A stretch of 64,000 nucleotides of DNA from Mytilus trossulus (lineage: Eukaryota). The stretch covers positions 7,192,001 through 7,256,000 of the forward strand of contig NC_086379.1 of the NCBI RefSeq assembly GCF_036588685.1, given 5' to 3'. Below are positions 7,801 to 40,695 of the stretch, one piece after another. The translations under genes were made by a program, and so were the position numbers. Position 1 is the stretch's first letter. Every line of letters begins with the position of its first letter. The notes beneath the pieces were generated by a model. It was given only the letters and a program-made list of their open reading frames with translations. It had not been told where the DNA came from and did no database searches.

Positions 7801-9049
7801 CTGAATACTCATTTTATGTTCGTTCAGTGTAATTTTTAAATCTTGTTCTAAGAAAAGAAAACTAATCGTATTATTTAAATAACGAAAATTAACTTGCAGG
7901 TTGTCGTCATATATTTCCAATGAGTGTTTAATAATTTAAGGGGGAATTGTATCTCAAAATGTACTGCAAACTATAAACAAAATCTTGATAAAGTCATCAC
8001 AAAGCCAAAAGTGAATTAAATTTTACAACAACAAACGGAAGTTTTTAACGACGTTGATTTGCTATACAACACATTGCAAGGTCGATAAATTTTACAAAAA
8101 TGTCGTATTTTATTTTATTTCCCCATAAAAAGCTGATGTATGCATGAACTTAAAATCCAAATGTATTTCAGACTTACCATGACATTCACGTAAAACGAAC
8201 TTATTCATATAATATTTTTTTTTCTAATCTCACTCAATTTTAAGCTTTCACTTTAAAAAAAAAATTAATTGATGTGGCACAAATATTAAGACGATTTAAG
8301 TAGGAATGAAAAGAACGTTTCAGTCACATTTAATTTATTTATTTATTCAATGAAGCATGATCAATGTAAAAAGAGTCGTGGCATCATACAAAGTAAAAAT
8401 TAGGCGTACCTTGTTTTGCGATCATCTGAACTGTATTTTGTACCAGGGAAATTTGTTCTTTAAATGTATTTTCCTCTTTCCTAAGTATTTCAAGATTTTC
8501 CAAATACATCTTTTCTGTTTCTATGTCCATGCAACATGATTCTAAATGCTCAAATGTCGACACAAACTCATTCTTTGCTGTTCCTAGGTATATTTCTAGC
8601 CTTCCGGATATGGATTTGAAGATTGTAAAATAATCCGTTAATTCCTGGTCTGTTACCAATGTATTGCCCCGGTGAAGAACTTCATTACGTTTCCTTCGAA
8701 CACGCTCAATATCGTCGCCAACAGTTAGCTCCAATGGTGTCGGGTCTGCTGGGAAATCCCACCCTTGAGTTGGAGGAGGAACCAAATTTAGATTTCGAAT
8801 TAACTTGTAGCATAATGATATATCTAGATTACTGTAGCCATTTGACTGTACACCAGTAATCTGTTTCCATTCATGTGCTCTTAAATTCCGTGATAAAAAT
8901 TTGTTTGTGCTAACATGACTATGCAACAAGTGAGGTGGCTCTTTAATGGTAAGTAGCTTCTGAAGAACGCTTGGTAGTTCACTTTGTGCTGCACACCCAA
9001 GACGAGCATAATTGGTAAATGACGATGTAGCTGTAGATGCACTAGCCAT
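4852..9049 (-). CDS. DZIP3-type HEPN domain + long coiled-coil protein (~555 aa; coding exons 9049-8410, 7847-7248, 6102-5698, 4874-4852; probable non-coding first exon ending at 11881)
   Basis: Three ORF-track ORFs join through canonical GT-AG junctions, all phase 1, total 1668 nt. The N-terminus (NYARL..., LDISLCYKLIRNL, PPTQGW, GDDIERVRRKRNEVLH) resembles the HEPN_DZIP3 family. The last micro-exon is less certain. Confidence 0.8.
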
Positions 9050-9391
9050 CTCTAAAGTCGTAGTGCTACAGTTGAAATTTACTTAATCTGTCAAAAAAGC
9101 ATAGTACAGTTTGAGAAATCTTATTAACATATTTGTTTATTTATATTCAGAACAACCATAAGTTTGATAAAGAAATAATTGAATAAGTTATATATTTAGT
9201 AATTAAATCAAAGTACAACAACCGCACACACTAAATGTATGAATATCATTCAACAGGAATTTTTAGGTTATACTTTATTTTACTACGTGTTTTTGTAATG
9301 ATGAATATGTTGTTTTGTGCAAAAAAAAACCCACTAAAAACGTTCATATGAAATAACTGACAATATGGTAGTCACTGGAAAGCATGACCAG

Positions 9392-10064
9392 GGGTGGTGT
9401 TCTCGAAGCTATCTTAGGATTAGGACGTGTCCTAAGTCTATCTTATGGCAAGTCTTTGTCCTAAGTCGAGTTCTCGAAGCTCTCTTAACTTTTGATATAT
9501 CTCATTTTTCGTCCTAACTTTAGGACACCCAATAAGGTGTCTTAAGAGCATCATATCTTCATCCTAGTGTAATAATGTTTGGATTTCGCTTTTTGCTCAT
9601 TATTTTACGTGAAAATGAACATGAAATGAAACGCACCATCGGTTATTAACTCGTATATAAAGAAATTGTGCATGATTTTAAACTTTGAACTTCGTGTTTC
9701 ACGATATGATTACACAACAAATTTAATTCTCATTTCAAAACAAATTGTTTTCAAGTTTAAATAACAATCTTTTTTTTATATAATAACATTGGTAATTATG
9801 CATTTAATTCTGTACATGTTATTATAAAATTCGTAAACAATTTTGTTAAAATTTTTCGTCATTAATAAATGTTTTATCAAAAAATAACTTTAAAGATTTA
9901 AAATTTCGACTTAGGAAATGTTTAGGACGTCCTAACATAAGATTCGTCTGAGAGAGCATCGAGACACAACTTAAGAGTGTCCTAAGTCGATCCTAAGTCG
10001 ATCCTAAAATCGGACTTATCTATGACTTAGGACGAATCTTAGGATACCTTCGAGAACACCACCC
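9392..10064. mobile_element. PIF/Harbinger-type MITE in the HEPN gene's first intron
   Basis: TIR GGGTGGTGTTCTCGAAG.TATC, CAG target duplication (9389-9391 / 10065-10067), subterminal TTAGGAC repeats. Confidence 0.8.
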
Positions 10065-10135
10065 CAGATCTTTTTCCGTGATTTAGTAAAACGGAGATGC
10101 TATATGATTGCCAATGAAAAAAACTATATATTATC

Positions 10136-10495
10136 TAATAATTACATTAGATGTAAGTTTCATTATAATACGTTATTCTAATTGGCTAACATGTTATTCC
10201 GTAAACAATTGCATCCGACAATAACATTTATCATGCATAATGACACGAGGTCCCACAAAAAAGTGCACAGGTGAATTAAATAAAACTGGATAAAAATCGT
10301 GTTTTCATGATTTTAGCTAAAAAAATGTAATTATATTAAGTATTGAATACTTCTTTTTGAAACTTTATAGGGTTGTAAAAGCGTTGACCGTGCGTACCTT
10401 TTTAGAATGAAGCGTTTCCGCGCTTCATACAAAATGTAATTCGGTCAACGCTTTTACCACCCAATAAATTTACAAAAAGAAGCATTCAATTCTTA
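10136..10495. mobile_element. Non-autonomous element with one-ended palindrome (family A; palindrome-only copy at ~38390-38552)
   Basis: Palindrome ~10336-10495; TAATTACATT/AATGTAATTA inverted pair at ~10139 and ~10324. Confidence 0.65.
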
Positions 10496-12027
10496 AATAA
10501 AGAAATACGGCGAAAACTACGGCAGATTGTAAAATAGATTGAATACAAAACTCGAATGATGTCGTTAGATATGAAATAGTCAAAAACATTCTTCGGTTTT
10601 CAAAGTGTATTCAGACCTGAAATAATACACAATGTATGGTTAACTGATGTAATTTACTGCAACATAAGAGTGTTACATATTTAGAGTTAGAGATGAGGAC
10701 GTTTTCTATCTTTTTGATATAACATAAATTAAAGTATAGCACACTACACGGGAAACATATTATTGAGAAAGCTCAGGTGTTTAACATTTTACTTTTGTTT
10801 TCATTTATTGTCTAAAAGAAATGCACTAACAAACAACCGTGTTCTCAGATCATATCTATACATCTTATTGATTTGTTTTGATTCATATTCAAAAGAAGCA
10901 TACATCAATGTATGATCCGTTCATCCTATTTCGACTCTTTAAAATTCAAGAGTTTGTTTTGAATTGAGATAAATTAAAATGTATATGGCCTTCAAAATAC
11001 CATTTCGATCCCTTACATCAGTGAAGAGACATTAGTTATCAAAATCCGGATATGGTGTACAAATCTTTGCACCATGTTTGCGGTATACCATCTTCTCCGC
11101 AAATTGAAATTAAAATCGTCAAGCTATCTGTATTAAAAGCTTAATTTTATATTTTACAGTTTACAAGTTAACAAATTAAAAATATTCCGGTAAAAGCTAC
11201 TTCACTATATCCTTCCTTGTAAACTGCTATTGTACATCTGATAACTGAAAAGTGATTACCAGTGTCATATTTGCAACCAATAAGAAAACTATGAATACTT
11301 TTTCATAACATGCCAATACTTTCAAAATTTGTAGTCAAATTAATACTTGACAAAATAAAAATTGGGACACATATTATCACTTTCAAAAATCTAATACTTT
11401 TGATATAAAACATATGATAAAAACTACTATGACATCAATCTGTTTCTGAGTGTATTAATGTTCTTCTATTCATAAACCTACATATGCATCAGAGTATAAA
11501 CAAAAAAAAAATGTTGATGTCTACAGAATTTTTAAGTTAGAATTTCAACAATACTACGATAATATGAACGTTCTTGATAAAGAAATCTAGTAGGTTTTTA
11601 AGTGATGTTTATATAATTACCATGTCTACATTATAAATGTATTTATATTTAATATCATTACACATATCATGTAGAATGACTCATAGGAAATGTTAACAAG
11701 TTTCATGTGTGTGGTTACAAAAGATCAATGTTTACCTGTACAAAAGTCAGCGTGCTTACAGAACATTGACCCTGTACTATCTTATGTCAGACTAGAAATT
11801 CTTTGATATTTTAGAATAAATCATGATGCTTTCTAAAAACTTATCATAAATAAAACAATTGAAATATTTCCCAAACTCACCAGTAGAGACACCTAAATTA
11901 GATAAGACTGAACCTTCTGCTCATCATCAATACACGTGACATTCATTAATCATATCCGATCATCTCAACTTTCACGTGAACTTGTACTGATCAAGGTAAA
12001 TAGGTCAACGATTACACAGGTAAAATA

Positions 12028-12172
12028 GCTACGGATGTTTTACGTCCGTAAACAATCCATAATACGTCCGTTGCTTTTCATCCGTAAAACGTCTGTTAAA
12101 CGTCCGTAATACGGACGTTTAGTACCACGACCATAATACGGATGTTTTGTACCACGGACGTATAACGTCTAT
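12028..12172. repeat. Cluster of ACGTCCGT/ACGGACGT motifs in both orientations
   Basis: About eight variants within 145 bp. Confidence 0.7.
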
Positions 12173-12198
12173 TATTATTATGCATTATAATATATTAT

Positions 12199-12340
12199 GG
12201 TATTATTGCGTAACAATTTTCATATTGGCTTAGTTATAGGTCCGAGGGTACCATATTGGCCTGAGGCGAAGCCGAATGCCAATATGGCTGCCCGAGGACC
12301 TATAACTAAGCCAATATGAAAATTGTTACGCAATGATACC
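12199..12340. repeat. Long terminal palindrome (~62-bp arms) with central GGCGAAGCC mini-hairpin
   Basis: Arms 12199-12260 and 12278-12340 are near-perfect reverse complements. Confidence 0.95.
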
Positions 12341-12562
12341 TTTATTAATTAACCAGTCCAATATGAACTCTAGCCGGGCCAATATGAAGATTGAAAAAAG
12401 TGTGAAAATCTGACATTCAGGACTTCAATAGTAGTGATTTGAATATGTATCAATGAAAATTGAGGATTTTAATCAAAACAATAAAATAGTAACAATTTTA
12501 TTAAATAATCAACAGTAAATAAACACAACAAGTAAAAAACATGTTTTTATCTAGTTTTCAGA

Positions 12563-15024
12563 TTAAAGCTCTTGGCTGCAGTTTATAGTATTCTTTCTTT
12601 CCCCTGAGTATATGTTAATATTGAAAACACCACCTGTTATAGTTGCACCTGCAAACATGGCCATTGGGTTGTCATGTTTGTTAGCAGTTTGATTATTTGT
12701 ATTTGATACATTTGCATTTAAATTATTATGAACTAATGTATTTGAGTTTGAAAGTTCACAAGGTTCCTCTGAATCTGATGTCGTCTGTAAATCTGAGTTC
12801 GGCAACATGACCTTAGATATTGTGTGAGAAGCTTGTTGCTGTTGTTCAATAGACGGTACTGAATAATGAGTTAAGGTACTAATGCCTTTCCAGCCTCCTA
12901 ATTGAGCAACTTCATTGGCAGGTCTACCATTTTGAAGTAGTGTGGTAGCAAAAGTTTTACGTCCCGAATGATTAACCTTTCTTCCTTGAAGATCTCCTTT
13001 TTCTGCCATATTTTTTACCATTTTACCTAATTTATCTTTGCCTATGGTTTTGCGAGTGTACCATATTTCCTCATGTTTATTATCTAAAGGCCTCAAATAA
13101 AATCTATGTTCATCAGTTAATGTGTCTTGAGGTCTATGCCGTTTGTATTCCTTGTAAACATGAATAGGGCAATTACTTCCTCCTTCCCCGAAAATCTTTG
13201 GCGTAATATCCCGGAAATCCCTGCTTTTTGCTCCACTACGGGTTTTGGTGCTTCTTTCTGAAAAAAGTATGCTTATGTCAATATTTAAAGAAGAATTATC
13301 CTTCCTGTCTGTACAAAACTTTCACTTTTATATAACAAAAAACATGTATTGCATAGTAAATAAGATTTGTTTTGATAAATATAAAACAATGGTTAATATC
13401 CTTAAAAGCACAAATTACCAACTTTTGTCAGGACTGTTGTACATGTACATCCATTATCCACAGAAGTATATATTCTGTGATTTCTAAAAGATTAAAAATA
13501 GCAACTATTTAAATGATGGAAATCATAACATAATCTCACCATTAAATTCCAAATACTCCTTTCCATCAGATGTAGCTTTTAACTTGACATCTCCCCATGT
13601 CATGTTAACATGGTCTTGTCGACCTCGTAGACCAAAGTATGTTGCATTATTTAAAAACACAGCATTCAGTAATGCATCAGGGTTTTCTGGAAAAAGAAAA
13701 AAAAAGAACTTAACTAAAATACATGTATCTTAATGTAAATATCCAACTTAAAATAGTATTTAAAGGACAAATACTGTATCAAAATGCAAAAGACCTCTGG
13801 AGACACTCTCATTGTTCAAGACCTTATGTGTATTTTAAACATTTTCTATTAGAACAACCATTTAATAATCAGGGATGGATAGAGGGCGACAAGGAAATAA
13901 AATAATTTGTTTGCCACAAGGTTAGAAAAATGTTTAATTAAAAGTTACTGACTGACACGCTGGAATACAACATTTTTTTAAACTTACGTGTTCCAATAAT
14001 TCCTTTCTCCCTCAAGATTTGGATTTCCTCAGTCGTCAAAGGTTCAGCTCTGTTTGGCTTACTGCCCTTGCCCAATGACTTTAATGCCTTTCGCTTCGCT
14101 TCTAATACCCGTCTTGTGTGGTTGAACTCAGGATCCTTTTTAATACTGAAACATTAAAGAAAAGATATGCATAATATCTGACATGTAATTTTTGTATGTA
14201 CATGTTTTATACTTATAGCAAAGAGAAACCAAGGAATATTCATTGTACACAAGCTTAAGATCATCAAAACCACATTGACCCAGATGATATATATAGTTTT
14301 TACCAAAAAAAATGACACAAGGCTAAAATTAAAATATTGGCACTGAATATTCGAGTCATAATGCTTGACAGAATAATGCAAAGGCTATCATGCTATATCA
14401 AGACAAGGGAGTTACATGTCTCACAGATATCAAATAATCTACATGAAAATAATCGTACCTTATACTACTTTTTGAGTCCTTCAAATGTCTATCCAAGCTG
14501 TTGAACATAGAGGATAAAGAGTCAGGCTCATATTCGTCACCATTTTTCTTCAGGACTCCAAGAAAAAATCTTGATAACAGACTGTCCAAGTCTTTGGCAG
14601 GTATTTCCACTGAATCACGCATTTCTCCAACAGATATGAAAAAATCCAGCATCACTTTCAAGTCACTCTTTGTTTTAGTTTTTGTGTTCTTGTTAACACT
14701 TAAAGCTAGAAAAGAGTCAGTGTCTTCATCAGTGACAGAGCGAAACCTCTTGCTACTCGAGCTATTTTCTTTGTCTGATTCGTCAATCTCATGATTCTGT
14801 GCATTTTCAATGTCCTGCAGAATTTCATTTGGGAAGTTGAAATTCGCTGAATCAACTTCTTCCAGAATCAAATTTCCTTCCCCATTGACATCCGCAAGAT
14901 TTCTCTTGATGTACTCTGCCTCCCTATTAGATAAATCGTCGTAGTGAAAATAGTCTTCAACTAACGCATCCATCGCATCATCTATATTTTGTATAGAGCT
15001 ATTGCTCCATCGTTTTGTTGTCAT
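12563..15024 (-). CDS. Crypton-type (DUF3504/ZMYM-QRICH1-like) tyrosine recombinase, 521 aa; exons 15024-14459, 14145-13988, 13686-13540, 13257-12563
   Basis: GT-AG splicing gives a 1566-nt open frame. Motifs: YEPDSL, LEAKRKALKSLGKG..AEPLT, FGLRG (R), STKTR (K), CPI..Y, FYLRP, NHSGR (HxxR), GGW, THY (Y). Confidence 0.9.
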
Positions 15025-15418
15025 TTTCTCCTGTCAGACGACACTAGCCGTAGTTCTCTAGAGTTATCGGGATTTCAACCGATTAGTCTAGAGCTAATCG
15101 AATATGCTAATATTGGGCTTGCTACACCCGGGCCAATACGGAAAAATCCGTATTGGCCTTATAGGACAAAATTATCGATTTGGCAGTTTTACTCGTATTT
15201 AGTCAAATAAGCTCCAGTTAATTAATAATATATATTACAGTATCTAATACACTTATTGTAGAATATATAACACACTTATTATAGTATATAGTATAGTTTG
15301 ATTTGTATGTAACAGTTGCATTGTATTGCTGAGACTTTTGATGGAACTGTCAATGACAAAATGCTTTTCTTTATTTTAAGGTGATGATACTTTTTATCTA
15401 CATTTCCTTATATAGTAT

Positions 15419-17048
15419 TGTAAGCCACCCGAGAGCATCCTGTCCTATACTCGGTAGTTTACTTTAATAACACGTAAATACAATATGTGACTCCTGTAGC
15501 AACTCTACATTTGTATTAAACTTCCTAAATTACTTGTCAGGTATGGTCTTCAGGTTGTTTAATATGTATGTATTGAGCGATCCCTTGTATTCGAGTGTTA
15601 CTGAGCTAATTTTTGTTCCTAACGGCTTTCCATAGTTTTTATGTTTGAACGAGCGTCTTCCAGCATCTTTTGTTTTCATCAGTGTAAATTCATGTTCTTT
15701 TTATATGTATCATAGTTCAATTAAACAAAGTTATCTTTCCAATGTTAACAGTTTTTATTTGCTCACTGTTAAAAGTATGTAACATTATAACATCGTAAAA
15801 CAATATAAATAAACAGTTGCGTTCAAGTGTACTGAATCATAAATCCTTATAAATACATATTTGTGGTGTCCGACGTGGTGGGAGATAGCTTACTGTACAA
15901 AAGACGGCTAATTACATATCATTAAACTTCATTATGTTATCCTTATTCTCACCTAAAGGTTATTGTTACTTTATTTGTTTTCCAAGGTTTGAACTTGCCG
16001 CCAGCAAAACTTTGGGCTATCTGCCATTGCTGAGTGCTCGCGCGTTTATATACTAAATTGTAATTGTCACGTGACATACTAATCCAATGGAAACTTGTCC
16101 TTTCCGGGAAGCCGGAACTATAAAAATTTCAGATAATGAAAAACATGATATACATATCATCTTAAATTGTCCGAACATTGTCCTTATACATAAAATATCA
16201 AAACAAAGCTATAGCATCTGAAATATCGACAAAGAAGCTTGAAATAAACAATCGGACACCACTGCGCGCGCATTGATTTAGCAGACGATCTGCGTAATTA
16301 CATAATACGTAAATAACATACAACATAGTTCATTTCAACCATCTAAATATTTACAATATATTTGTGTCCGGCAGGGTATACTTATTAAAAATCTTATGTG
16401 TGGTATTAAAAATACAATATAAGATCAAATGTTCAGGGGACGAATTGGTATTTAAAGATATCAAAACACATGTTTCGGTCCCCACAAAAATGGCAGACGA
16501 CAAAGTCTCCGTAAATAAACAATTGCAGTTGAAGTAATTTTCTATGTATATCAGGCATATTAGACGTTTAAATATGAATATTTGGTTACAAGAAATGATC
16601 CTTAAATCTGGAATTACATGATATAAAGCATGTAGAAGGTAAGCCATGAGTAATTACATACATTCCCTGCCGTAACACTTGTACAACAAAATGTAAACAA
16701 ATGAAAAATTCATTTCACTTCCAGTGTTTTACGCATTAAAAATGTGTTATCCTTGATAATTGTCAACATCATCTTGAACCTATATACAAACATGAACTAG
16801 AAATTCATATCATAGCTGATGAAATGCTTCCCCCCTTTATATTTGGTAAACAAAAAAATGAAACTTTGGCCTGTGAAATCCATACATAAAAATAGTAAAT
16901 TAATGCCATATCTTTGATTAAAAAAATGTTTTACTTGTTCGTGCGAGCCAAGTTACTATGCGTAAGAACACAACCATCATGTTTAAAAGAATAATATTTC
17001 CTTTTTCTGAATTTATAATATCATAACAAGTACTTCCAATGCCTTACA
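15419..17048 (-). repeat. 3' LTR (1630 bp)
   Basis: Direct repeat of 24920-26549, preceded on the minus strand by the PPT. Confidence 0.97.
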
Positions 17049-17060
17049 CTTCCCCCAACT
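17049..17060 (-). promoter_or_regulatory. Polypurine tract
   Basis: AGTTGGGGGAAG abuts the 3' LTR on the minus strand. Confidence 0.8.
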
Positions 17061-17143
17061 TCAATATATATTAATTCTCCTGAATTAAAAAAAACAGTAT
17101 AACTATGTTATTTAAAAGAATTGTTCATAAATTGTCTTTCTCT

Positions 17144-17656
17144 TCATTGGTCTTCACCAAGTCTAAGTTGTACACCCACGGCATCATTTTTGTTCAAGAT
17201 AATGTCTGTTGATGTGTCTCTCTTTGATGATGACGCTTCAATCATATCAAGCAATTGTAAGGTGGTGGGATCGTCTGTTTTACTCTTAATGATATTGGCA
17301 ATTGCTTGGTACAGATAGTATCTAGACTTAACTGTCATTGTATTGCCCTCTGTTGATTGTGGGGTTTTCGTGCCTGGAAGTGCCAAAAAGTGATACTTTA
17401 ATAGAAGCTCCTCCTTTGAAAATTGAAGCTGTTTCCCGGTGTTTAACTCCAATGCAATGCTAGCATACTCCCAATTGAAATATCTTTGTTCAGGGGTCAT
17501 GTTTTTCCAGTTTTTCGGGGGCCATTTCACTTCAGCTGGTATGGTAATCAAAGTTACGATTTCTTCTTTTTCCCATTCCCTCCTCCCAGCTGGGAAAAGT
17601 GGCATCCCACCTCTCCTTAAAAGTTTGTCTGCTCTTTCACTGGCAGTGTAAAACTG
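17144..17656 (-). CDS. In-frame continuation of ORF3 beyond a single TAA (globular C-terminal domain, GGMPLFPAGRREW..WPPKNWK)
   Basis: Same frame as ORF3; 17 open codons lie between the TAA and the ATG at 17605. Confidence 0.65.
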   Translation of the reverse strand, partial: QFYTASERADKLLRRGGMPLFPAGRREWEKEEIVTLITIPAEVKWPPKNWKNMTPEQRYFNWEYASIALELNTGKQLQFSKEELLLKYHFLALPGTKTPQSTEGNTMTVKSRYYLYQAIANIIKSKTDDPTTLQLLDMIEASSSKRDTSTDIILNKNDAVGVQLRLGEDQ

Positions 17657-19345
17657 TTAACTTTGCAGGTTCTCTCCTTCCTGTAGTCTCATTAGTTCTG
17701 CTTCATTTGACCTGGTTTCTTCTGCTAATCTCTTGGTTTCTGCCTCCTCCTGTCTCCTTAGTTCTTCCTCTTTCATTCTAATTTCCTCATCCTGTTTGTG
17801 TTTTTCCCTTCTCTTTTGTTCTGCCTCCTTTAGTCTGACTTCCTCCTCCTGTTTCTGTTTTTCCTGCTTCTTACGTTCTTCCTCCTTCTGTCTGATCTCC
17901 TCCTGTTCCTGTTTTTCCTTTCTCTTTTGTTCTGCTTCCTTTAGTCTGACTTCCTCCTCCTGTTTCCGTGTTTCCTGCTCCTTATGTTCTTCCTCCTTCC
18001 GTTTAATCTCCTCCTGTTCCTGTTTTTCCTTTCTCTTTTGTTCTGCTTCCTTTAATCTGACTTCCTCCTCCTGTTTCCGTGTTTCCTGCTTCTTATGTTC
18101 TTCCTCCTTCCGTTTGATCTCCTCCTGTTCCTGTTTTTCCTTTCTCTTTTGTTCTGCTTCCTTTAGTCTGACTTCCTCCTCCTGTTTCTGTGTTTCCCGC
18201 TTCTTATGTTCTTCCTCTTTCCGTTTGATCTCCTCCTGTTCCTGTTTTTCCGTTCTCTTTTGTCCTTCCTCTGTTAATGGCATTTCCTCATCCTGTTTCT
18301 TGTAATCCTTTCCTTTCTTTATTTTCTTTGCCTTCTGTTCCTGGTGGTTAGTCTTTTTCTTTCTTTTCTCTACATATCTCTCTTCTTCTTTCTCGGTCGT
18401 CTTTCTACCCTTCTTCTGGCTTGTTGGTTCCTCTAAAATCTCGGGTTCTTCATTGTCGCTGTCGTCTTCTAAAATGATATCCGATGTTGATGGTGTTTTC
18501 AGTGGTGATAGTTGATTTGTGGCGGCTTTTGTCTGTTTTCCTGGGAATAATTCGCCTGATGTTTTTATATCCGTTATATACTCCTCCTTTATTGATAATT
18601 TCCTAGCCACTACAGGAGTCACTATAGACTTTAGTTTACCGTCTATCGATACAGAGAAGGTATGTGATCCTGCGTACTTTGTGTTAACTAGTGCTGTCAT
18701 CCTTCTAATCAGAGCGTCAAGCATTTTTTGGTCTCTAAGAACGGAGTCATTCAAATGGATCATATAAAATCTTATGGACACTCCAAGGTCCAATTTAAAA
18801 ATGGCTGTAGAGTCCCCAAGTCCCAAAGTTAGTTGCTGGAGGGCCAGCCCTTCATAAATAGTGGGGCGTGTTGGTGAGTAAGATCCATTGGGTTTCTCCG
18901 ACTCAACCTCTTCTTCTTGTGTACCTTTTACCATCTCCTTCGGACACTTCCACCCTACAGTCCATTCCTCTTTCTTTCTGTTGGTGTTGTCCACCCTGTT
19001 TAAAAATTCAAGAACCTCAATCCTGGCTTTCATTGCTTCTTGTGAATTCTCATTTGATGGTAGGATTACCTTAGCATATGTCTCTGGATAGTTTGCCATC
19101 CAAAACCCATTGTTTTCGCTCAGGAAGCTATAAGGCATCAGTTCTATTTTACTGCGGTGGTGAGCCATGACATGCTCCTTAAGGTCAACCATCCTCCTGT
19201 AGGACTTCTCCTCAGGACACCAAACACAAATGACCGAAAGCCTTTTGTGTGGGGCAGCTGCCAGATGATTTTTCAGTTGTCTCCTTGTCCTAAACGTCAT
19301 GGGACACAGCCAACACTTTGCCTCAATTTGGGATGATGGTCTCAT
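17657..19345 (-). CDS. Retrotransposon ORF3: two C2H2-type zinc fingers + K/E/Q-rich 40-aa repeat coiled coil
   Basis: 562-aa ORF between pol and the 3' LTR; CWLC..H..H and CVWC..H..HH; about four 120-bp tandem repeats at ~17770-18260. Confidence 0.85.
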   Translation of the reverse strand: MRPSSQIEAKCWLCPMTFRTRRQLKNHLAAAPHKRLSVICVWCPEEKSYRRMVDLKEHVMAHHRSKIELMPYSFLSENNGFWMANYPETYAKVILPSNENSQEAMKARIEVLEFLNRVDNTNRKKEEWTVGWKCPKEMVKGTQEEEVESEKPNGSYSPTRPTIYEGLALQQLTLGLGDSTAIFKLDLGVSIRFYMIHLNDSVLRDQKMLDALIRRMTALVNTKYAGSHTFSVSIDGKLKSIVTPVVARKLSIKEEYITDIKTSGELFPGKQTKAATNQLSPLKTPSTSDIILEDDSDNEEPEILEEPTSQKKGRKTTEKEEERYVEKRKKKTNHQEQKAKKIKKGKDYKKQDEEMPLTEEGQKRTEKQEQEEIKRKEEEHKKRETQKQEEEVRLKEAEQKRKEKQEQEEIKRKEEEHKKQETRKQEEEVRLKEAEQKRKEKQEQEEIKRKEEEHKEQETRKQEEEVRLKEAEQKRKEKQEQEEIRQKEEERKKQEKQKQEEEVRLKEAEQKRREKHKQDEEIRMKEEELRRQEEAETKRLAEETRSNEAELMRLQEGENLQS

Positions 19346-19894
19346 TCTGAAATTGAATCATCAATTATAAATCCCTCCACCATACAACATATATTAATAC
19401 AATACATAATATCATGTAGTGTCCTGTAGTGTGACTATATTTGTTTGTGTGTTTAAAATCCTCCCCCCATATGGCATATGCTGGTAGTAAATGGATCAAG
19501 CTAAGTTTCAGTCTAAAAATATGATATCCACCCCCTTGGTCTCCCTATTTCAAAAATCTCAAGCCTCCTCAAGACAGTAAGTTGTCGTTAATTGCTTTCC
19601 GCCGCGCAACTTGCGCATAAAAAAAACGCTTGGCAGTAGTTTAATCTGCCATTCCCCTGGCAGGAAGATTCATCCTTCCCTTACAGCCAATAATATGTCC
19701 TGAGAAACAATGGCCATTTGTCTCCCTTACATATTCTTCCAGAGTGGATCCAACTCTAGGAATTCCATCATGACTTTCTCCAGTCTGAGAAAAGTCAAAC
19801 AGTTACTCTTAAACATAGTAACTCATCAAAACAATTAAAAACGTAACAACTTGTACAACTAATTTCGGCTATTCAAACAACGTTAAAGGGCATC

Positions 19895-22800
19895 TCAAAC
19901 CTTCCTACTGGAGAACCAAGTGGGCGGATTCCGTCCTTGATAGGGCAGTAGTCTATCAATGTGGTAGACCTTCCCTGGCTGTTTCTTTGACCTTCTCACA
20001 AGGTAAGTGATGTCGTCAATTTTCCTTGTAACAACATATGGTCCTTTCCATTTTGATGTCAACTTATGACAAATTCCCTTTTTCTTCGATGCATCATAAA
20101 GCCATACAGCTTGACCTACTTGTAATTCGCGCTTTACTGCTTTCAAGTCATAGTGACGTTTTTGATACTCAGAATTCTGCTTAAGATGTTTCCTAGCAAG
20201 TACATGTGACTTTGACATTGCGTCCTGTAATTCATTTACATATTTATCTGTTTCAGGGGAAGTGGATTCGTTTGGTCCATCAGGGCGTGGAATAACAGCT
20301 TCCATAGGAAGAAATATGTTTCTGCCAAACATCATCATGTTAGGGGTCTGTCCTGTACTGGCGTGAACTGATGATCTGTATGCCATCATAACCTGTGGCA
20401 AAATCTCATCCCAGTTTCTCTGATCATTTTGACAATAAAATGTTAGCATGCTTAGGAGTGTTCTGTTAAATCTTTCTACGCTTCCGTTGGACTGGGGGTG
20501 TTGACTTGTACTTCTAGTTTTGTCAATTTTAAGTAGATCACACAGATCTTGAAACAGCTTTGCTTCGAAAGACCTTCCTTGATCAGAGTGGAGCTGTAAT
20601 GGTGAACCAAACCTACAAATAAATTCATTCACGATGGTACGGGCAATGGTCAGGGATTCCTGGTCCGGAATAGCATATGCTTCAGTCCATTTAGAAAAGC
20701 AGTCGCAAAGGACCAGAACATAGCGGTTTTGTCGTTTTGTTAACGGAAGTGGACCAAGAATATCAATCGCCACACGTTCCATAGGCTCGCCAACCAAGTA
20801 TTGACCCAATGGAGCCTTGTTCCGCTTCAGTGATTTCCTAGCAGCACACTGGTCACATTCCTTGCAGTACCTTGTGATGGAGCTTTTCATAGCTGGCCAG
20901 TAAAAGAGTTTCTGGATCCTACTTAGCATTTTATCTGGTCCTAAATGACCTGCAGATGGAACGTCATGAAAATACTTGAAGACTGTCTTTTGGTGTGATT
21001 TTGGTACCAGGAGCTGCAATTTGAAGTTGTCTACATCGTCTTTATCAGAACAATAAAATTTTCTATAAAGCATGCCATTGTTTATTGTTAGCCTATCCCA
21101 TTGTCGCCATATTGTCTTCTGGAATGATGTTCCTTTTGATACTTGGTCCCAGTCAGGTTTATTTTTCTTTTCTTGAAGATATGTCACAATGAGTGACATG
21201 TCTAGGTCTTCCAATTGGCTTTGTCTGATACTATCTGGGTCCCATCCATCAATGCAGTAACCACTTGTAGCACTATACTGATTTCCTGTCTGACTTCTTG
21301 TACATACTCGTACTATTTCTATTCTTGGTGTTGGTTCTTCATTTTCGTGTAACTCCTGGTTAACAAAATCAGTTTCTTCCAGTTGGATTTCGTCTGTTTC
21401 ATCGTCGCTTGCGTGGTTTCCAGATTCTTGTCTCTCGCATGATTTACAAGGTCTTCTGGACAGAGCATCGGCATTTGAGTGTTTCCTTCCAGCTCTGTGT
21501 GTTACTGTCAAATTGTAAGTTCCCAGTTCTTCGAGCCATCTGGCTGTTTGACCAGTGGGTTTCTTTAGATTTTTCATCCATGATACAGCTGCGTTATCTG
21601 TGCGCAGCAAAACTTCCTGGCCATATAGATAATGATGAAATGTCTTTAGTGCTATAATTACAGCAAGTAGCTCTTTTCGGGTTACACAGTATGCCTGTTC
21701 ATGTATGTTCATAGATTTGCTCATGTATGCTATGACTCGTTCAAGACCATCTTGAATTTGTGACAACACTGCTCCGACAGCCTTATCACTTGCATCTGTG
21801 TCAAGTATGAATGGCAAATTTGGCAGTGGGTAGGCAAGTACAGGTGTACTTGTTAAAGCGCTTTTCAACTGTTGAAATGCCTTTTGACACTCATCATTCC
21901 AAGCAAAACGGCTATTCTTTTCACAAATTTTGTGCATTGGTCTTGCAATTGCTGCAAATCCCTTAACAAATCGCCTATAGTAAGAGCAAAGTCCTAAAAA
22001 GCTGCGCACCTGTTTTGCAGATTTAGGGACAGGCCAGTCATCTATTGCTTTTGTTTTCTCTAGATCAGTGGAAATTCCCTCCTCGGACACGATATGCCCA
22101 AGGAACCTAACTTGTTTTTGAAAGAAAATGCATTTGGCAGGTTTCAATTTCAGATGTGCGTTTTGTAGACGTATACAGATTCTTTCCAGCCTCCCAAGAC
22201 CCTCTTCAAATGTCGAACTTATTGATATGATGTCGTCCATGTAGAGTAATAGTTCTTTCCACTGTAGCCCTCTGAGAACATTTTCCATCAGACGCTCAAA
22301 AGTAGATGGTGAATTTGCAAGTCCAAAGGGCATGACAGTGAACTGGTATAACCCTAAACTTGTCAGAAATGCGGTCTTTTCCTTGTCTTCAGGAGCCATG
22401 CCGATTTGCCAAAATCCTGAATTTAAGTCCATTGATCCGAAGAATTTTCCCCCAGCGAGCGAGTCGAGGCACTCGTCTACTCTCGGAATCGGGTAGGAAT
22501 CTTTTTTCGTGACGTCATTCAAAATTCTGTAATCAACACAGCACCTAGGGCTGCCATTTTTCTTCATTACAAGGACTATATTTGATGCCCAAGGACTAGA
22601 AGATGGTTCGATGATTCCTTTGTCCAACATCCGATTGACTTCTGATTTTTCCATCTCTTGCTTTCCAAGTGGCATACGTCTAGATCTCTGCCTAAAGGGT
22701 ACTGCATTTCCTGTATTTATTCTATGTGTTACAAGGTCTGTCCTCCCTATGTCATCATCTGTCCTTGAAAATACATTTTGGTACTGTGAAAGGGGTCTGG

Positions 22801-23704
22801 AGAGTTGTTGTCTTTGGTCCTCATTTATATAAGTTGAACTCCTTTTTAATAAGTCAGTAAGATGTTCTGGTATTTCTTCACTAGCTGTAAAGCAATCTTT
22901 CTGTAGTGTTCTAATCTGCTCTGGTTTCAAATCATGCTCAGTATATGATTCACATGTTCCTATTGTTTCCTTTTTATACAGTTTAACTTCGTCGTCACCA
23001 TAGTTGACAACATTAACAAAGTGTACTTGGTCTTGTGTATTTATAATCCCAGGTATGGTTAATGTAGACTTGGCTGTTCCTGTCGTGCCCTCTATTAATC
23101 CGTATTCTGTTAAATGATTGACTCCCGGTATTTCTACAGGCATCATAGTACTCGTCATTGGAGGAATTGTCATGTTGTCCTTAATTTCTACTTTGCAAAT
23201 CATATTTGCCTTCCCTCCAATCCAACATTGTATTTCCTGGTTGTGGATCGTGTGTAAGACCATGCGCTGATAATTTACTTTACTAACTTCCTTTAGTAAG
23301 AAATCCTGTCCAAGTATTCCATCCTGATTGATATTGCATATCATAAAATTTTGACTGAAAATTTCTTGACCAAGCATTAGTTCTAAAATGATCGATCCAA
23401 TGGCAAAAACCTTATTGCCATTAACGTCAAATATTTCGGATTTGTTTGGTACTAAAGAACACCAAACATTTGAAGGCAATTTTTCGTAAACATCAATAGA
23501 TAATATTGACGCAGTTGAGCCACTGTCAATTAAAAAGTTGACAGGAAACCCAAAAATTAATCCATTTGTATAAAACCCGTTATCCCAATTATCATCTGTT
23601 TCCCCTATATGTCCTGTCCGGACATGTTTTTCTCCCTTCATATCAGGCCTTTTATCTTCTGTCACTAGCTCACGACCTATTGAGCCAGCGTTCTGTCGTT
23701 TCCC
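19895..23704 (-). CDS. pol: Pol polyprotein (protease, RT, RNase H, integrase), reached by -1 frameshift
   Basis: LIDSGS protease, YMDD RT, DTDAS RNase H, HHCC + DDE integrase and a GPY motif, with no stops. Confidence 0.97.
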   Translation of the reverse strand, partial: GKRQNAGSIGRELVTEDKRPDMKGEKHVRTGHIGETDDNWDNGFYTNGLIFGFPVNFLIDSGSTASILSIDVYEKLPSNVWCSLVPNKSEIFDVNGNKVFAIGSIILELMLGQEIFSQNFMICNINQDGILGQDFLLKEVSKVNYQRMVLHTIHNQEIQCWIGGKANMICKVEIKDNMTIPPMTSTMMPVEIPGVNHLTEYGLIEGTTGTAKSTLTIPGIINTQDQVHFVNVVNYGDDEVKLYKKETIGTCESYTEHDLKPEQIRTLQKDCFTASEEIPEHLTDLLKRSSTYINEDQRQQLSRPLSQYQNVFSRTDDDIGRTDLVTHRINTGNAVPFRQRSRRMPLGKQEMEKSEVNRMLDKGIIEPSSSPWASNIVLVMKKNGSPRCCVDYRILNDVTKKDSYPIPRVDECLDSLAGGKFFGSMDLNSGFWQIGMAPEDKEKTAFLTSLGLYQFTVMPFGLANSPSTFERLMENVLRGLQWKELLLYMDDIISISSTFEEGLGRLERICIRLQNAHLKLKPAKCIFFQKQVRFLGHIVSEEGISTDLEKTKAIDDWPVPKSAKQVRSFLGLCSYYRRFVKGFAAIARPMHKICEKNSRFAWNDECQKAFQQLKSALTSTPVLAYPLPNLPFILDTDASDKAVGAVLSQIQDGLERVIAYMSKSMNIHEQAYCVTRKELLAVIIALKTFHHYLYGQEVLLRTDNAAVSWMKNLKKPTGQTARWLEELGTYNLTVTHRAGRKHSNADALSRRPCKSCERQESGNHASDDETDEIQLEETDFVNQELHENEEPTPRIEIVRVCTRSQTGNQYSATSGYCIDGWDPDSIRQSQLEDLDMSLIVTYLQEKKNKPDWDQVSKGTSFQKTIWRQWDRLTINNGMLYRKFYCSDKDDVDNFKLQLLVPKSHQKTVFKYFHDVPSAGHLGPDKMLSRIQKLFYWPAMKSSITRYCKECDQCAARKSLKRNKAPLGQYLVGEPMERVAIDILGPLPLTKRQNRYVLVLCDCFSKWTEAYAIPDQESLTIARTIVNEFICRFGSPLQLHSDQGRSFEAKLFQDLCDLLKIDKTRSTSQHPQSNGSVERFNRTLLSMLTFYCQNDQRNWDEILPQVMMAYRSSVHASTGQTPNMMMFGRNIFLPMEAVIPRPDGPNESTSPETDKYVNELQDAMSKSHVLARKHLKQNSEYQKRHYDLKAVKRELQVGQAVWLYDASKKKGICHKLTSKWKGPYVVTRKIDDITYLVRRSKKQPGKVYHIDRLLPYQGRNPPTWFSSRKV
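23664..23704 (-). promoter_or_regulatory. -1 ribosomal frameshift signal (G GGA AAC + downstream stem-loop)
   Basis: The slippery heptamer at 23704-23698 is in gag phase. Its -1 frame is continuous with pol. A stem CTGGCTCA/TGAGCTAG starts 9 nt downstream. Confidence 0.85.
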
Positions 23705-24741
23705 TGGATGTGATTAAAAGAGGTATTTTGTCTTTGGTTGCCCTGGAAATTCCCTCTAGCTCTTTGGTTGTTTTTGTGTGGACAGTTCCTCATAAAATGG
23801 TCTGGGGAGTTACATCCGTAGCATCTGCCAGTATTTGCCCTCTTTGATTCCCGACTTCCATGTCCTTGTTCCAGCTTTGCTATCCTATCTTGTAATTCCT
23901 GCAAATTGCTATGGTAATCCTTTTCACTCATGTGTCCTTCGATGTCCTTTGATTCCACAGCTCTGATCATTGTTGACTTCTTTTTGTCTTGATCCCCCAA
24001 AATTGACTCATACCTCTCTATTACATCAACAGCGTCTGCTATTGTGTGGCATTCCTTGTCAATACAACGACATTTCATTTCCACAGTTATTACCTTGAAT
24101 AACTGGTTTAGTGCAAGAGACTCCTGCGCTGCTAGGTCCAGGTCATAGTACGCCTTTTGCGCTAGTTGCCTGATATCATCCCCCACCTCAGCTATGCTTT
24201 CCCCTGCCATGCGCCTGCGCATCTCTAACTTTGAGAGCCAACGATTTTTGTGTTTTGAACTCCCAAACCTCTGATCTAACTTTTGTGTTAGCATTTGGTA
24301 TGTGCGCCTGTCGCCAGCAGACAAGCTCATGTAGTATGTCCTTGCTTGGCCCCTTAAGCTAGCTGCCAAAAACAACAGTTTTGTACGGTTTCCCCATTGT
24401 CCCAATTCAGCGCAGTCCTCAAAATGCGACAAGTATTCCTCCCAACAATCCTTACCAGAGAAGGGCTCAGGTTTAAGTGTTACCTTTGGTGGGCCAATTG
24501 GTTGCATATTATGATTACCCCTACCATTCCTATCGTCAAAATCATGTCTCTGATATTCATCCCGTCCTTTATGTCTCTGATCTACTTCATCACCATGACC
24601 TTGTAAAATTGATTCCCTATCAAAGTCGTCATTGTCATCAGTGTGTATTTGATCCCCTTGTCCTAAGTCATCTAAATCTAAATCCCTTTCCCTACGGAAA
24701 TTTATTTCAGGGTCTGGGGAGTTCCTACCAGTATCAGCCAT
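23677..24741 (-). CDS. gag: Gag (capsid + CCHC nucleocapsid)
   Basis: 354 aa; KPEPFSG..WEEYLSHFE capsid-type motif; CYGCNSPDHFMRNC zinc knuckle. Confidence 0.95.
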   Translation of the reverse strand: MADTGRNSPDPEINFRRERDLDLDDLGQGDQIHTDDNDDFDRESILQGHGDEVDQRHKGRDEYQRHDFDDRNGRGNHNMQPIGPPKVTLKPEPFSGKDCWEEYLSHFEDCAELGQWGNRTKLLFLAASLRGQARTYYMSLSAGDRRTYQMLTQKLDQRFGSSKHKNRWLSKLEMRRRMAGESIAEVGDDIRQLAQKAYYDLDLAAQESLALNQLFKVITVEMKCRCIDKECHTIADAVDVIERYESILGDQDKKKSTMIRAVESKDIEGHMSEKDYHSNLQELQDRIAKLEQGHGSRESKRANTGRCYGCNSPDHFMRNCPHKNNQRARGNFQGNQRQNTSFNHIQGNDRTLAQ

Positions 24742-24898
24742 ATTCTAAATAAAGACTTTTTATTTTATTTGTTGTTTCATATTCTATAGTTATAATAAAT
24801 TTTTGTACAGTAAATCCACCACGTCGGGCTTAAACCACGTTTTTAAGTTGACAGGTTATTCCAAGGTTCGTATCCTGGATGCTAATTAGAATTTTAGC

Positions 24899-24916
24899 AT
24901 CCCACTTCTGACACCA
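24899..24916 (-). promoter_or_regulatory. Primer binding site complementary to the tRNA-Leu 3' end
   Basis: TGGTGTCAGAAGTGGGAT lies 3 nt inside the 5' LTR boundary and is complementary to ...ATCCCACTTCTGACACCA of tRNA-Leu. Confidence 0.85.
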
Positions 24917-24919
24917 AAT

Positions 24920-26549
24920 TGTAAGCCACCCGAGAGCATCCTGTCCTATACTCGGTAGTTTACTTTAATAACACGTAAATACAATATGTGACTCCTGTAG
25001 CAACTCTACATTTGTATTAAACTTCCTAAATTACTTGTCAGGTATGGTCTTCAGGTTGTTTAATATGTATGTATTGAGCGATCCCTTGTATTCGAGTGTT
25101 ACTGAGCTAATTTTTGTTCCTAACGGCTTTCCATAGTTTTTATGTTTGAACGAGCGTCTTCCAGCATCTATTGTTTTCATCAGTGTAAATTCATGTTCTT
25201 TTTATATGTATCATAGTTCAATTAAACAAAGTTATCTTTCCAATGTTAACAGTTTTTATTTGCTCACTGTTAAAAGTATGTAACATTATAACATCGTAAA
25301 ACAATATAAATAAACAGTTGCGTTCAAGTGTACTGAATCATAAATCCTTATAAATACATATTTGTGGTGTCCGACGTGGTGGGAGATAGCTTACTGTACA
25401 AAAGACGGCTAATTACATATCATTAAACTTCATTATGTTATCCTTATTCTCACCTAAAGGTTATTGTTACTTTATTTGTTTTCCAAGGTTTGAACTTGCC
25501 GCCAGCAAAACTTTGGGCTATCTGCCATTGCTGAGTGCTCGCGCGTTTATATACTAAATTGTAATTGTCACGTGACATACTAATCCAATGGAAACTTGTC
25601 CTTTCCGGGAAGCCGGAACTATAAAAATTTCAGATAATGAAAAACATGATATACATATCATCTTAAATTGTCCGAACATTGTCCTTATACATAAAATATC
25701 AAAACAAAGCTATAGCATCTGAAATATCGACAAAGAAGCTTGAAATAAACAATCGGACACCACTGCGCGCGCATTGATTTAGCAGACGATCTGCGTAATT
25801 ACATAATACGTAAATAACATACAACATAGTTCATTTCAACCATCTAAATATTTACAATATATTTGTGTCCGGCAGGGTATACTTATTAAAAATCTTATGT
25901 GTGGTATTAAAAATACAATATAAGATCAAATGTTCAGGGGACGAATTGGTATTTAAAGATATCAAAACACATGTTTCGGTCCCCACAAAAATGGCAGACG
26001 ACAAAATCTCCGTAAATAAACAATTGCAGTTGAAGTAATTTTCTATGTATATCAGGCATATTAGACGTTTAAATATGAATATTTGGTTACAAGAAATGAT
26101 CCTTAAATCTGGAATTACATGATATAAAGCATGTAGAAGGTAAGCCATGAGTAATTACATACATTCCCTGCCGTAACACTTGTACAACAAAATGTAAACA
26201 AATGAAAAATTCATTTCACTTCCAGTGTTTTACGCATTAAAAATGTGTTATCCTTGATAATTGTCAACATCATCTTGAACCTATATACAAACATGAACTA
26301 GAAATTCATATCATAGCTGATGAAATGCTTCCCCCCTTTATATTTGGTAAACAAAAAAATGAAACTTTGGCCTGTGAAATCCATACATAAAAATAGTAAA
26401 TTAATGCCATATCTTTGATTAAAAAAATGTTTTACTTGTTCGTGCGAGCCAAGTTACTATGCGTAAGAACACAACCATCATGTTTAAAAGAATAATATTT
26501 CCTTTTTCTGAATTTATAATATCATAACAAGTACTTCCAATGCCTTACA
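24920..26549 (-). repeat. 5' LTR (1630 bp)
   Basis: Direct repeat of 15419-17048, adjacent to the PBS. Confidence 0.97.
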
Positions 26550-37539: not shown

Positions 37540-37902
37540 GAGTTAATCCGTCACCGGAAAAAACTCGTCAATAATACGCGCCTTTAACACCGTCATTTGG
37601 GCGTTTAGGGGCGTCGTCACTTCCCTTCCAATATTGAGCGAGTGGTTGGAAAATTATAATTCTATATTGTACGAATTGTTCGGCAAATTGAATTCTCAAA
37701 ATTGACAATCAACACTGCTGTCATTAGGGAATTGTCAGTAAGTACCTACAGAGCAACTATTATTTCTAGTTTATCCTGCACAGAGACGATCACTAAGACG
37801 CTTGATGAACGTAAATAATGCAGAGATACAGGCGACCCCCTCTATCTGGTTAATGACGTCATAAAGGCATGCATAATTGACGAGTTTTTGCCGGATGAAC
37901 TC
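37540..37902. mobile_element. MITE with GAGTT.ATCCG termini (degenerate partial copy at ~40860-41125)
   Basis: Imperfect ~55-bp TIRs; no clear TSD. Confidence 0.6.
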
Positions 37903-40397
37903 GAAAGTGGTATATTAATAATGATTTGTTTTGTTAAGAGAATAATGTTTAAAAACTTATGCAATCACTCAAATGAGTTCATATAATTGCATAGAATACG
38001 CCACAGATGAACCAGAATCTACGTACCCTTCCATTGCACATGCGATGCTGCCAAGTTTTTGATTAGATTCGTTTTTCTTTATCTATAGTTATGTTGTGTG
38101 TTGTGCTGTTTGTCGTTAACTTTTTTAGCCATGGCATTGTTAGTTTATTTTCGATTTATGCGTTTGAATAATTAATTATCTGGTATTTTTTGCGCTCTTT
38201 TTTAACCGTTAAATATCTCTTATAATATGAGGAAAACAAGTGCTCTCAAAGAAATAATTTTTACTGCATTTTCCATCACACCAATCAAAATAGAGTTAAT
38301 GCTAATCCAATTTTTTTATTGAGATACAATTGAAATAAAAAAAAATGATAAACAATATTAATTTATAGATATGGATGGACAAAATCTGATGAATGCTTCT
38401 TTTTGTAACTTCATTGATCTTCATAGGGTTGTAAAAGCGTTGACCGTGTGCACATTTTTAGAATGAAGCGCTTCCGCCATTCATACAAAATGTACTTCAG
38501 TCAACGCCTTTACACCCCAATGAAGTTACAAAAAGAAGCATCCAATTCTTAATTTAAAATCAAACTAAATATTATTGTTAAAAATATATGGACTTTCGTG
38601 GATCTACAACCAGTCGATACCTGTATCTTTGCATTGCACAATGTCATGTGTTTCTTTATATAGACATAGGAAGATATGTTTGTATCGTCTTTCCACTCAA
38701 TCAATTGGACGAGTATTGATTGATAATTTAGTCTTAGATGCATAATTTTTGTTTAGTAGTTGTACATGTAATTGGCTTTAAACTAGCTGTCAGTAGTACT
38801 ACTATCAGTGTCATTTTATGTTGAGCTGTACAAGTACCCGGTTACGTCCACTCTGTGTTTTTGTTATATGTATCTCTATTTGTATCCATAGGATGAGTTT
38901 ACCCTTTTACCAGATTTAAATATTTCGTTCTTATGTTCTACGTTCTACCACTATCATAGATAAGACCCACTATAACATGTGTTATCCCGCCACATTCTGT
39001 ATTCATGTACATGTACATGTCTGTCCATAGTCAGGCGCCTGTTATTCCCTGTTTGTAGTTTGTTGGTGTGTTGAATAATTATTTGTTTTTCGTTTCTTTT
39101 TAACATCATTTAGGACGTTGGTTTTCCCGTTTGGATTGTTTCACATTTTTGATTTGGGGCCTTTTGAAAGCTGACTATTCGGTACAAGCTTTGCTCATTG
39201 TTGGAAGCCGTACGGTGACCTATAGCTGTTTATTTATGTCATTTGGTCTCTTGTAGAGAATTGTCTCATTGGCAATCATACATGTACCACATCATCAATT
39301 TTATATGTTAGAAATTTAACTTTTTTTGATAATTAAGATTCCTCAAGAGTATAGTCGAAACGTTTGAATTTTTGACCATCTTACCAGTTTAGGTGTCAGA
39401 CTACCAATTACTCCCTCAAATTTAAAAGTAGGTCTACTCGGGACAAAAAATAGTGCATTTAATGTCATTGTTTACTTAAGCTACCCAACCAATTTGCAGA
39501 AATGAAACTTTTGGTGAAAGAGAAATATATTAAGATAATTTTGAGCCCAAATATACATGTTGTACTTGTTTATGAGTTGAAATTAACAATTGAGGATTAA
39601 TGCGCTCCATGGTATAATACTAATTTAAGATTTCAAGAAAACCAGGGGTTGTTTTAGTGGTACATCCATTCGGAAGGTCTCTTCTTTCTTATATGGCTTT
39701 AAAGGCATGAAGAAAGGTGATACCTGTATTCAGATTCCTGATTCAGGACATACCTGGTTTGCAAGAGGTTAAACTTAAGATAAAAAATTTAGAAAGCTAT
39801 GCAATTGGACTTTTAAATGGTGGTCTGACACCTATAAAATTTTTTTATTTATTAGTGACTAATACTCTGTGCAAAAATGTTTTTATCATTGCATTTGTAA
39901 TTGTTGTTTCAAAATTCACTATATCATATACAAATGGTACTAGAATGACAAAAATATAAATGAAATTCTAGATTCAGGATTTAAAAAAAATCAGTTGTTG
40001 TTAAAATCAAACTCGGTTAAATTTTAGAGCTAATTTGAAAACCTACCCTAAAATAAAAATAAAGTTACACAGTTTAATCAGTACATGAAGAACACTAGAA
40101 TTAAAGACTTCGAATTAAAACGCCGTTGAAATTGATAAAAATAAAATAGGCAATGTATACAAAGTATTATAAATGTATTGCTATCATAAAAGCGCTGCCG
40201 GGTCAAAGATTGCATTCATCTTGAAATGGCAACTTAATATTAATCATTCAATCATGCATCGGAAGGAAATATAAAATATCTTCTTTTGTCCATTATTGCA
40301 AATGGTTTTACAACTAACGAAGATAAGTTAAAAAATTAAACATACATATCTTTCTTTAACAACGATTATTGCTATTTTTATTTTAATGTAATTTCTT

Positions 40398-40695
40398 CAA
40401 GGAATGACTGTAATATTTTTCTGTCTATGAGGAAATAACATAAAAAAATTGGTGCACACTGAATAACGCGCGTAACAGTGTGTACAACATTTTTTTTAAT
40501 GTTATTTCGAATAGACAGACAAAATATTACCATAATTTTTTTATAATTTAATTCTAAATTCCATTTAAAACCGTAGAAAACCATGAAAAAACGTTGATGA
40601 CGCCACGGTCACATGACTAAATTATGTCTTAATGGCCTCATAACAAAATAATGTCCGCCAATCAGAAGACGCGTTACATCCAAAATTAAATTATT
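40398..40695. mobile_element. Non-autonomous element with one-ended palindrome (family B)
   Basis: Palindrome ~40400-40540; ATAATTTAATT / AATTAAATTAT inverted pair at ~40543 and ~40684. Confidence 0.6.

Follow-up and report, generated by a model that had tools for sequence, protein, structure and literature searches.

How does a short repeat that encodes no protein move, and which enzyme moves it? The question is raised by a 64,000-nucleotide stretch of the Mytilus trossulus genome (the window; 33.6% GC, AT-rich and crowded with repeats), in which a non-coding repeat, family A, ends in a long palindrome and lies close to an element with a tyrosine recombinase gene. Within these 64 kb, family A is represented by one full and one partial copy.

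The left end of the full copy (the splint, S') is the exact 11-nt reverse complement of a site (S) just inside a terminal palindrome of about 160 bp (Table 1), and in both respects the initial annotation was confirmed. The S/S' match cannot be extended beyond 11 nt, and neither motif has a second occurrence in the window. The palindrome, whose arms include a longest ungapped stretch of 55 nt at 89%, folded on the minus strand with a minimum free energy of -72.5 kcal/mol (z -12, with 0 of 100 shuffles as good) and on the plus strand with z -9 against shuffles. On the minus strand, the apex of the full copy reads GAAGCGC-GGAA-ACGCTTC; its closing pair is C.A, so ViennaRNA gave a loop of 6 nt, and the GGAA-capped GCGC stem that had been described for this loop belongs to the two-copy consensus only. 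The folding energy of the apex showed no strand preference (-8.2 versus -8.7), and the splint was predicted to pair with a probability of 0.5-0.7 on either strand.

All stop-free frames overlapping 10138-10496 were of 51 aa or fewer, no tandem repeat or microsatellite was found there at score 30, and Rfam gave four weak matches over 10000-12500, all under the gathering score. The family A pattern had 0 matches in GTDB genomes, and its DNA had no match in plasmid and phage collections. Conventional TIRs were not found at the two termini, the only inverted pairs being terminal-to-internal or inside one end. Immediately to the left of family A and of the neighbouring recombinase element lie separate repeat-like segments with short internal repeats (9880-10070 and 12030-12165, respectively).

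Table 1 Positions of the repeats, their palindromes and their splint sites within the window
Feature	Positions	Strand	Description
Family A, full copy	10138-10496	- (strand with the palindrome 5')	Non-coding, about 360 bp; the exact ends may shift by a few AT bases
Family A, terminal imperfect palindrome	10336-10496		Arms of about 75 bp; begins and finishes TTAAG/CTTAA; reaches 10331-10500 with a 1-nt bulge
Family A, apex GGAA (TTCC on +)	10416-10419	-	4-nt loop in the two-copy consensus only
Family A, inner splint site S, AATGTAATTAT	10324-10334		Single base (10335) from the palindrome arm
Family A, terminal splint S', ATAATTACATT	10138-10148		Perfect reverse complement of S
Family A, subterminal motifs in common with element B	10150-10186	-	GCCAAT(T/C)AGAA (10178-10186 region) and TTACATC (10150-10156)
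Family A, second copy	38390-38552	-	Palindrome only; broken within the inner arm; 10-nt insertion in one arm
CryptonA-type autonomous element	12199-15228	- coding strand; palindrome-first strand +	1.7 kb from family A
Crypton, terminal palindrome	12199-12340	+	GGC-GAA-GCC apex at 12265-12273; scan extends the arms to 12188-12351; z -15
Crypton, inner splint site S, TTATTAATTAAC	12342-12353		Separated from the palindrome arm by one base
Crypton, terminal splint S', GTTAATTAATAA	15217-15228		12-nt splint
Crypton, tyrosine recombinase gene, four exons	12566-15024	-	tblastn blocks 15024-14461, 14147-13968, 13687-13541 and 13264-12566
Element B, another kind of non-coding repeat, laid out in the same way	40399-40694	+	Palindrome 40410-40530, degraded outward to about 40399/40542
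Element B, inner splint site S	40543-40553		Perfect 11-nt pair with S'
Element B, terminal splint S'	40684-40694		Perfect 11-nt pair with S

Judged by its predicted protein, the neighbour of family A is a real, catalytically intact CryptonA-type element. Its sole gene encodes a recombinase 99% identical to a M. trossulus DUF3504 tyrosine recombinase, with PF12012 (DUF3504) and PF00589 (phage-integrase) domains above cut-off, and the matching protein P0001, which represents a cluster of 25 sequences, has the catalytic residues R262, K295, H387, R390, W413 and Y422 (P0001 numbering). When a Crypton alignment was compared with GTDB, 40 pattern matches were returned and 0 were confirmed; the plasmid collection held no match to the protein. 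A predicted model of the recombinase (mean pLDDT 78) matched Cre with Z 19.9 and rmsd 3.4 over 302 aligned residues, and further fold matches were to QRICH1 (Z 16.4) and the integron integrase IntI4 (Z 15.4). Among solved structures, the best relative is the QRICH1 DUF3504 domain, as seen in the Zincore complex (9hjt). No telomere resolvase was among the fold matches listed, which excludes nothing. Another protein, P0006, is a Mytilus coruscus prediction in which a Crypton fragment (86% identical) is fused to an OTU domain, and is probably a gene-model chimera.

The two ends of this Crypton repeat the layout of family A, with a 12-nt splint and, in both elements, a single unpaired T between the base of the hairpin (P') and S. 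That the two have the same architecture yet no sequence similarity, as first proposed, was borne out: when the ends of family A were aligned with those of the Crypton, 51-104 of 200 shuffles scored as high, as did 20 and 22 of 500 in a second test. GCCAAT-containing motifs are repeated at both Crypton ends (12221-12388 and 15111-15160), with a perfect 12-bp hairpin at 15131-15158, and one GCCAAT box sits near S' in each of A and B.

Other elements crowd the same window. A Gypsy-type LTR retrotransposon on the minus strand (15419-26549) lies 190 bp from the Crypton end. It has a GTAT target duplication, and its LTRs, of about 1630 nt, are 99.9% identical. Besides gag and pol it carries an additional ORF of 566 aa (17657-19357), in which a charged repeat and a weak match to a C2H2 finger were seen. 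Two minus-strand ORFs, 8384-9082 and 41197-42141, encode DZIP3-like HEPN and HtrL/YibB domains.

A gapped hairpin scan identified 8 hairpins in the window and 0 in the shuffled window. Four were long with tight loops: the Crypton end, family A, the truncated family A copy and a further hairpin at 40410-40530, which belongs to element B. Hairpin-plus-splint geometry was present in three of these four, the fourth being the truncated copy. When 8 inverted-repeat structures were put through one and the same test, three had splints, of 11, 11 and 12 nt, and the matches at the remaining five reached only 5-8 nt; the TIR-bounded miniature elements at 55582-55966 and 37554-37894, which served as controls, were without a splint. 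When 695 inverted pairs from the whole window were scanned without gaps, the Crypton came up together with two weak hits; A and B did not, probably owing to indels in their arms.

Element B was chosen by the hairpin scan before its flank was read. Its splint was predicted to pair with a probability of only 0.3-0.4 on either strand, and decay of the outer 12 bp of its arm leaves the junction less sharply defined. The last 80 nt of A and B align with a score reached by 2 of 500 shuffles and by 15 of 3000 random window segments, and the two end motifs that they have in common (Table 1) sit near S'. TAATT is present in the S sites of all three elements, A, B and Crypton.

These observations bear on one alternative, in which the splint would be no more than a coincidental AT-rich match next to a palindromic repeat of the ordinary kind. 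A match of at least 11 nt within 400 nt has a probability of 0.033 per side under an AT-rich null (0.0096 within 300 nt under an all-window null), so such a coincidence is not far-fetched for one element, and chance 11-mers do occur: within 3.5 kb, the AT-rich null gave 0.17 for 11 nt and 0.045 for 12 nt. The splint of family A alone is therefore modest evidence. Its recurrence at the same position in three elements with a common TAATT core adds weight and makes coincidence scarcely credible; the rough joint chance of the three splints was about 4e-4 as the product of two-sided AT-rich nulls, a figure to be read knowing that A and Crypton were known beforehand and that only B, at about 0.07 alone, was found blind.

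The second palindrome copy, which the initial annotation had placed at about 38390-38552, is present and is 83% identical to the first over 163 nt, without a splint: the site is missing together with the end of the inner arm, and the best inverted match there was 7-8 nt. Both arms had changed in only 1 of 70 gap-free columns between the two copies, which therefore offer no evidence of covariation. The 10-nt insertion (38417-38426) lies in one arm beside bases that match the opposite arm, and resembles a template switch.

A copy that consists of the palindrome without the remainder might suggest that the full copy is really a pair of neighbouring miniature elements of the DDE type, one a palindromic MITE flanked by TTAA in the style of Kolobok or piggyBac and the other a 197-bp MITE with 11-bp TIRs. 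TTAA does stand at both ends of the family A palindrome, in copy 1 only, and it is the TSD of Kolobok and piggyBac according to sections of PMC13565253. Copy 2, however, is broken inside the inner arm and does not end in TTAA; TTAA is lacking at the outer palindrome end of B and of the Crypton, which show the same abutment nonetheless; and the 360-bp unit as a whole lacks TIRs at both termini with a TTAA TSD. As three independent side-by-side insertions in 64 kb would also be unlikely, we regard this composite origin as highly unlikely.

We also considered a Helentron-type element (HINE/Helitron2), non-autonomous and moved by a Rep/helicase, whose 3' hairpin would be unusually long and whose plus strand would read subTIR ... 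subTIR, hairpin. HINEs, as described in parts of PMC4067079 and PMC7492417, carry subterminal inverted repeats of 11-15 bp, an end hairpin and T-rich flanks, and have no TSD. Family A resembles them, and DINE-1, in its asymmetric inverted repeats of 11 bp, within the HINE range, in its hairpin at one end and in its T-rich flanks. Its terminal 11-mer overlaps a 6-bp inverted repeat (10142-10147/10151-10156), recalling the subTIR plus inverted repeat of HINEs (where the latter is 7-12 bp or the subTIR palindromic), and the T that flanks both of its junctions may reflect a TT target as in HINEs, although the Crypton has these T residues too. HINE-like arrays also occur in the window. Tandem arrays of 166 bp were seen at 46046-47085 and 58823-60064, the first of which opens with a short inverted-repeat pair like that of a HINE and finishes in a fold-back.

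The proportions of family A are different. Passages of PMC4067079 give HINE palindromes of 5-10 bp and a 3' subTIR 38-60 bp from the end, whereas family A has arms of about 75 bp, a hairpin some ten times longer that reaches the terminus and an inner repeat about 162 bp from the end. The microsatellite or central tandem array that is usual in oyster HINEs is not in family A, and no inverted repeat was seen beside the terminal 11-mer of element B. The sole coding element in the window with this layout, moreover, encodes a recombinase and nothing of the Rep/helicase kind. A Helentron origin thus appears improbable.

The geometry of the ends is most simply described on the strand that carries the palindrome first, which reads 5'-P...P'-S...interior...S'-3', with P pairing to P' and S' to S. 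P' abuts S, which brings the two termini of the strand together on one continuous internal template. This layout hints at movement as folded single strands, as opposed to the double-stranded circles usually assumed. The strand could become single-stranded at a replication fork, during repair or as a cruciform; the recombinase would bind the duplex junction of the folded strand and, in one round of strand exchange, would close it into a dumbbell-shaped circle and rejoin the flanks. The closed junction could then mimic a duplex attachment site for a one-strand exchange into an AT-rich target, and the product would be resolved by replication. Such a cycle would explain why an integrated copy starts and ends mid-site while the intact complement of that site lies inside the element, and it would permit clean excision and copy gain alike. 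CryptonF, for which parts of PMC9977147 describe clean excision with copy gain, would fit it.

A strong rival is that family A is a non-autonomous Crypton moving as a conventional double-stranded circle. In that case S, S' and the arms would serve as inverted sites for protein binding, or as a cruciform enhancer, and would be complementary because the sites are symmetrical, not because they pair. The duplex circle is the standing model (PMC3212892), although a 2026 review states, in the sections available, that the Crypton mechanism is still not demonstrated (PMC13565253). The recombinase model is Cre-like over both domains, which favours a duplex circle, and 11-12 bp is the usual length of a half-site (11-13 bp in the available text of PMC3212892). 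A Crypton would be expected to show a terminal direct repeat or target microhomology of 4-6 bp and no true TSD. Short direct repeats span the ends of family A and of the Crypton: TTATT at both ends of A and a 9-nt AT-only repeat across the Crypton ends (12187-12195 and 15225-15233), which may be target sequence and differs from the internal template. All of these repeats are AT-only, however, and element B has no equivalent. A duplex circle would also leave unexplained why the joined ends find their complement, save for one base, in the internal P'-S stretch, and why 75-bp arms are kept in unrelated families.

Further results count against a single-strand mechanism. At the rebuilt junction, half-site symmetry of the loxP kind was no stronger than expected by chance, with 583-970 of 1000 shuffles doing as well. 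Strand bias was absent from the folding energies of the elements' hairpins, covariation was not seen between the two A copies, and the closer match of the predicted fold to Cre than to IntI4 does not mark the recombinase as a single-strand specialist. On balance, we judge the duplex circle rather unlikely. That family A moves as a folded single strand is our overall reading, offered tentatively at slightly less than an even chance. The broader proposal, that animal CryptonA elements and a sequence-unrelated class of non-coding repeats alike move through a folded single-stranded dumbbell on an internal splint, is more tentative still.

The question of which enzyme would act on family A can be separated from how the DNA is folded. 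The initial annotation made family A a non-autonomous partner of another Crypton recombinase, and the shared geometry, the finding of element B and the diversity of Mytilus recombinases all agree with this, whereas a sequence link from family A to any recombinase-encoding element did not emerge. Among 14 Mytilus proteins compared, taken from 53 hits among 8000 candidates, there were at least 5 lineages with core identities of about 40-70%, several of them catalytically intact by motif; other recombinases that could serve A and B therefore exist. Partnership with a Crypton is likely, on the strength of structure shared within one window, and family A is probably a non-autonomous Crypton whose hairpin and splint act as cis signals and which is moved by another Mytilus Crypton recombinase.

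Non-autonomous animal Cryptons as such are already known (PMC3212892 and PMC5753468, in the parts available). A literature search found no account of a terminal hairpin with a splint in Cryptons; Repbase, Dfam and Repbase Reports lay outside its scope and may already describe it. Reportedly, Repbase notes for some Eulor families describe hairpin-and-tail folds, and the hairpin itself may already be recorded in such entries. The strings 'palindrom' and 'hairpin' are absent from the available text of PMC3212892, PMC5753468 and PMC13465315, and four short family A/B motifs had no match in the available paper texts or in the searched part of the PMC10294476 supplements. Consistent ends could not be defined in a 2026 study of CryptonA, according to the available portion of PMC13465315.

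An end structure common to an intact autonomous element and to unrelated non-coding repeats defines the precise substrates and point mutations with which a first biochemical test could be made, and the hairpin-plus-splint arrangement offers a structure-based rule for sorting unclassified repeats. Such repeats are numerous: sections of PMC10294476 put the unclassified fraction at 20% of annotated repeats in Mytilus coruscus, and sections of PMC8905726 count about ten thousand Crypton-annotated repeats in a clam genome. If our reading is true, a long terminal hairpin with an abutting splint would classify many bivalve repeats and perhaps the conserved Eulor elements of vertebrates. Among eukaryotic DNA transposons, these elements would then stand as the equivalent of single-strand tyrosine recombination at attC/CTX, and the DIRS ICR would have in them a DNA-only forerunner.

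Family A can be compared with three known systems. The non-autonomous animal Cryptons (CryptonA-1N1/1N2_OL, CryptonI-1N1_RPro, Eulor5/6, and salmon Crypton-N1 and CryptonA-N2) are likewise short, non-coding and partnered with DUF3504-type recombinase elements; they range from 353 to 709 bp (PMC3212892, supplement 1) and have no ordinary TIRs or TSD, just as family A lacks TIRs. The available text of PMC3212892 reports no terminal repeats for animal Cryptons, and all CryptonA and CryptonI rows of its supplement 1 read 'n.d.'. These elements were assigned by identity of their ends to a parent or to other Cryptons, whereas the link proposed for family A is structural only.

In integrons, each cassette opens with a short stretch complementary to the bases that lie immediately inside attC. 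Like family A, the attC site and the CTXphi site each form a long imperfect palindrome with little sequence conservation between elements; a tyrosine recombinase acts on it in folded, single-stranded form, as proposed here for family A, and replication resolves the product (as set out in sections of PMC4792948). They are bacterial; neither an attI platform nor an AAC crossover motif nor strand selection was evident for family A, and the fold predicted for the neighbouring recombinase is nearer to Cre than to IntI4.

In DIRS elements, the internal complementary region splints the ends for circularisation. Family A contains an ICR-like stretch, and has neither ITRs at both ends nor a coding frame. 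It differs from DIRS in having no reverse transcriptase or RNA step, and where DIRS has ITRs at both ends, its long inverted repeat forms a hairpin at a single end. In DIRS as here, however, an element tied to a tyrosine recombinase carries an internal region complementary to both of its ends (described in part of PMC6681497).
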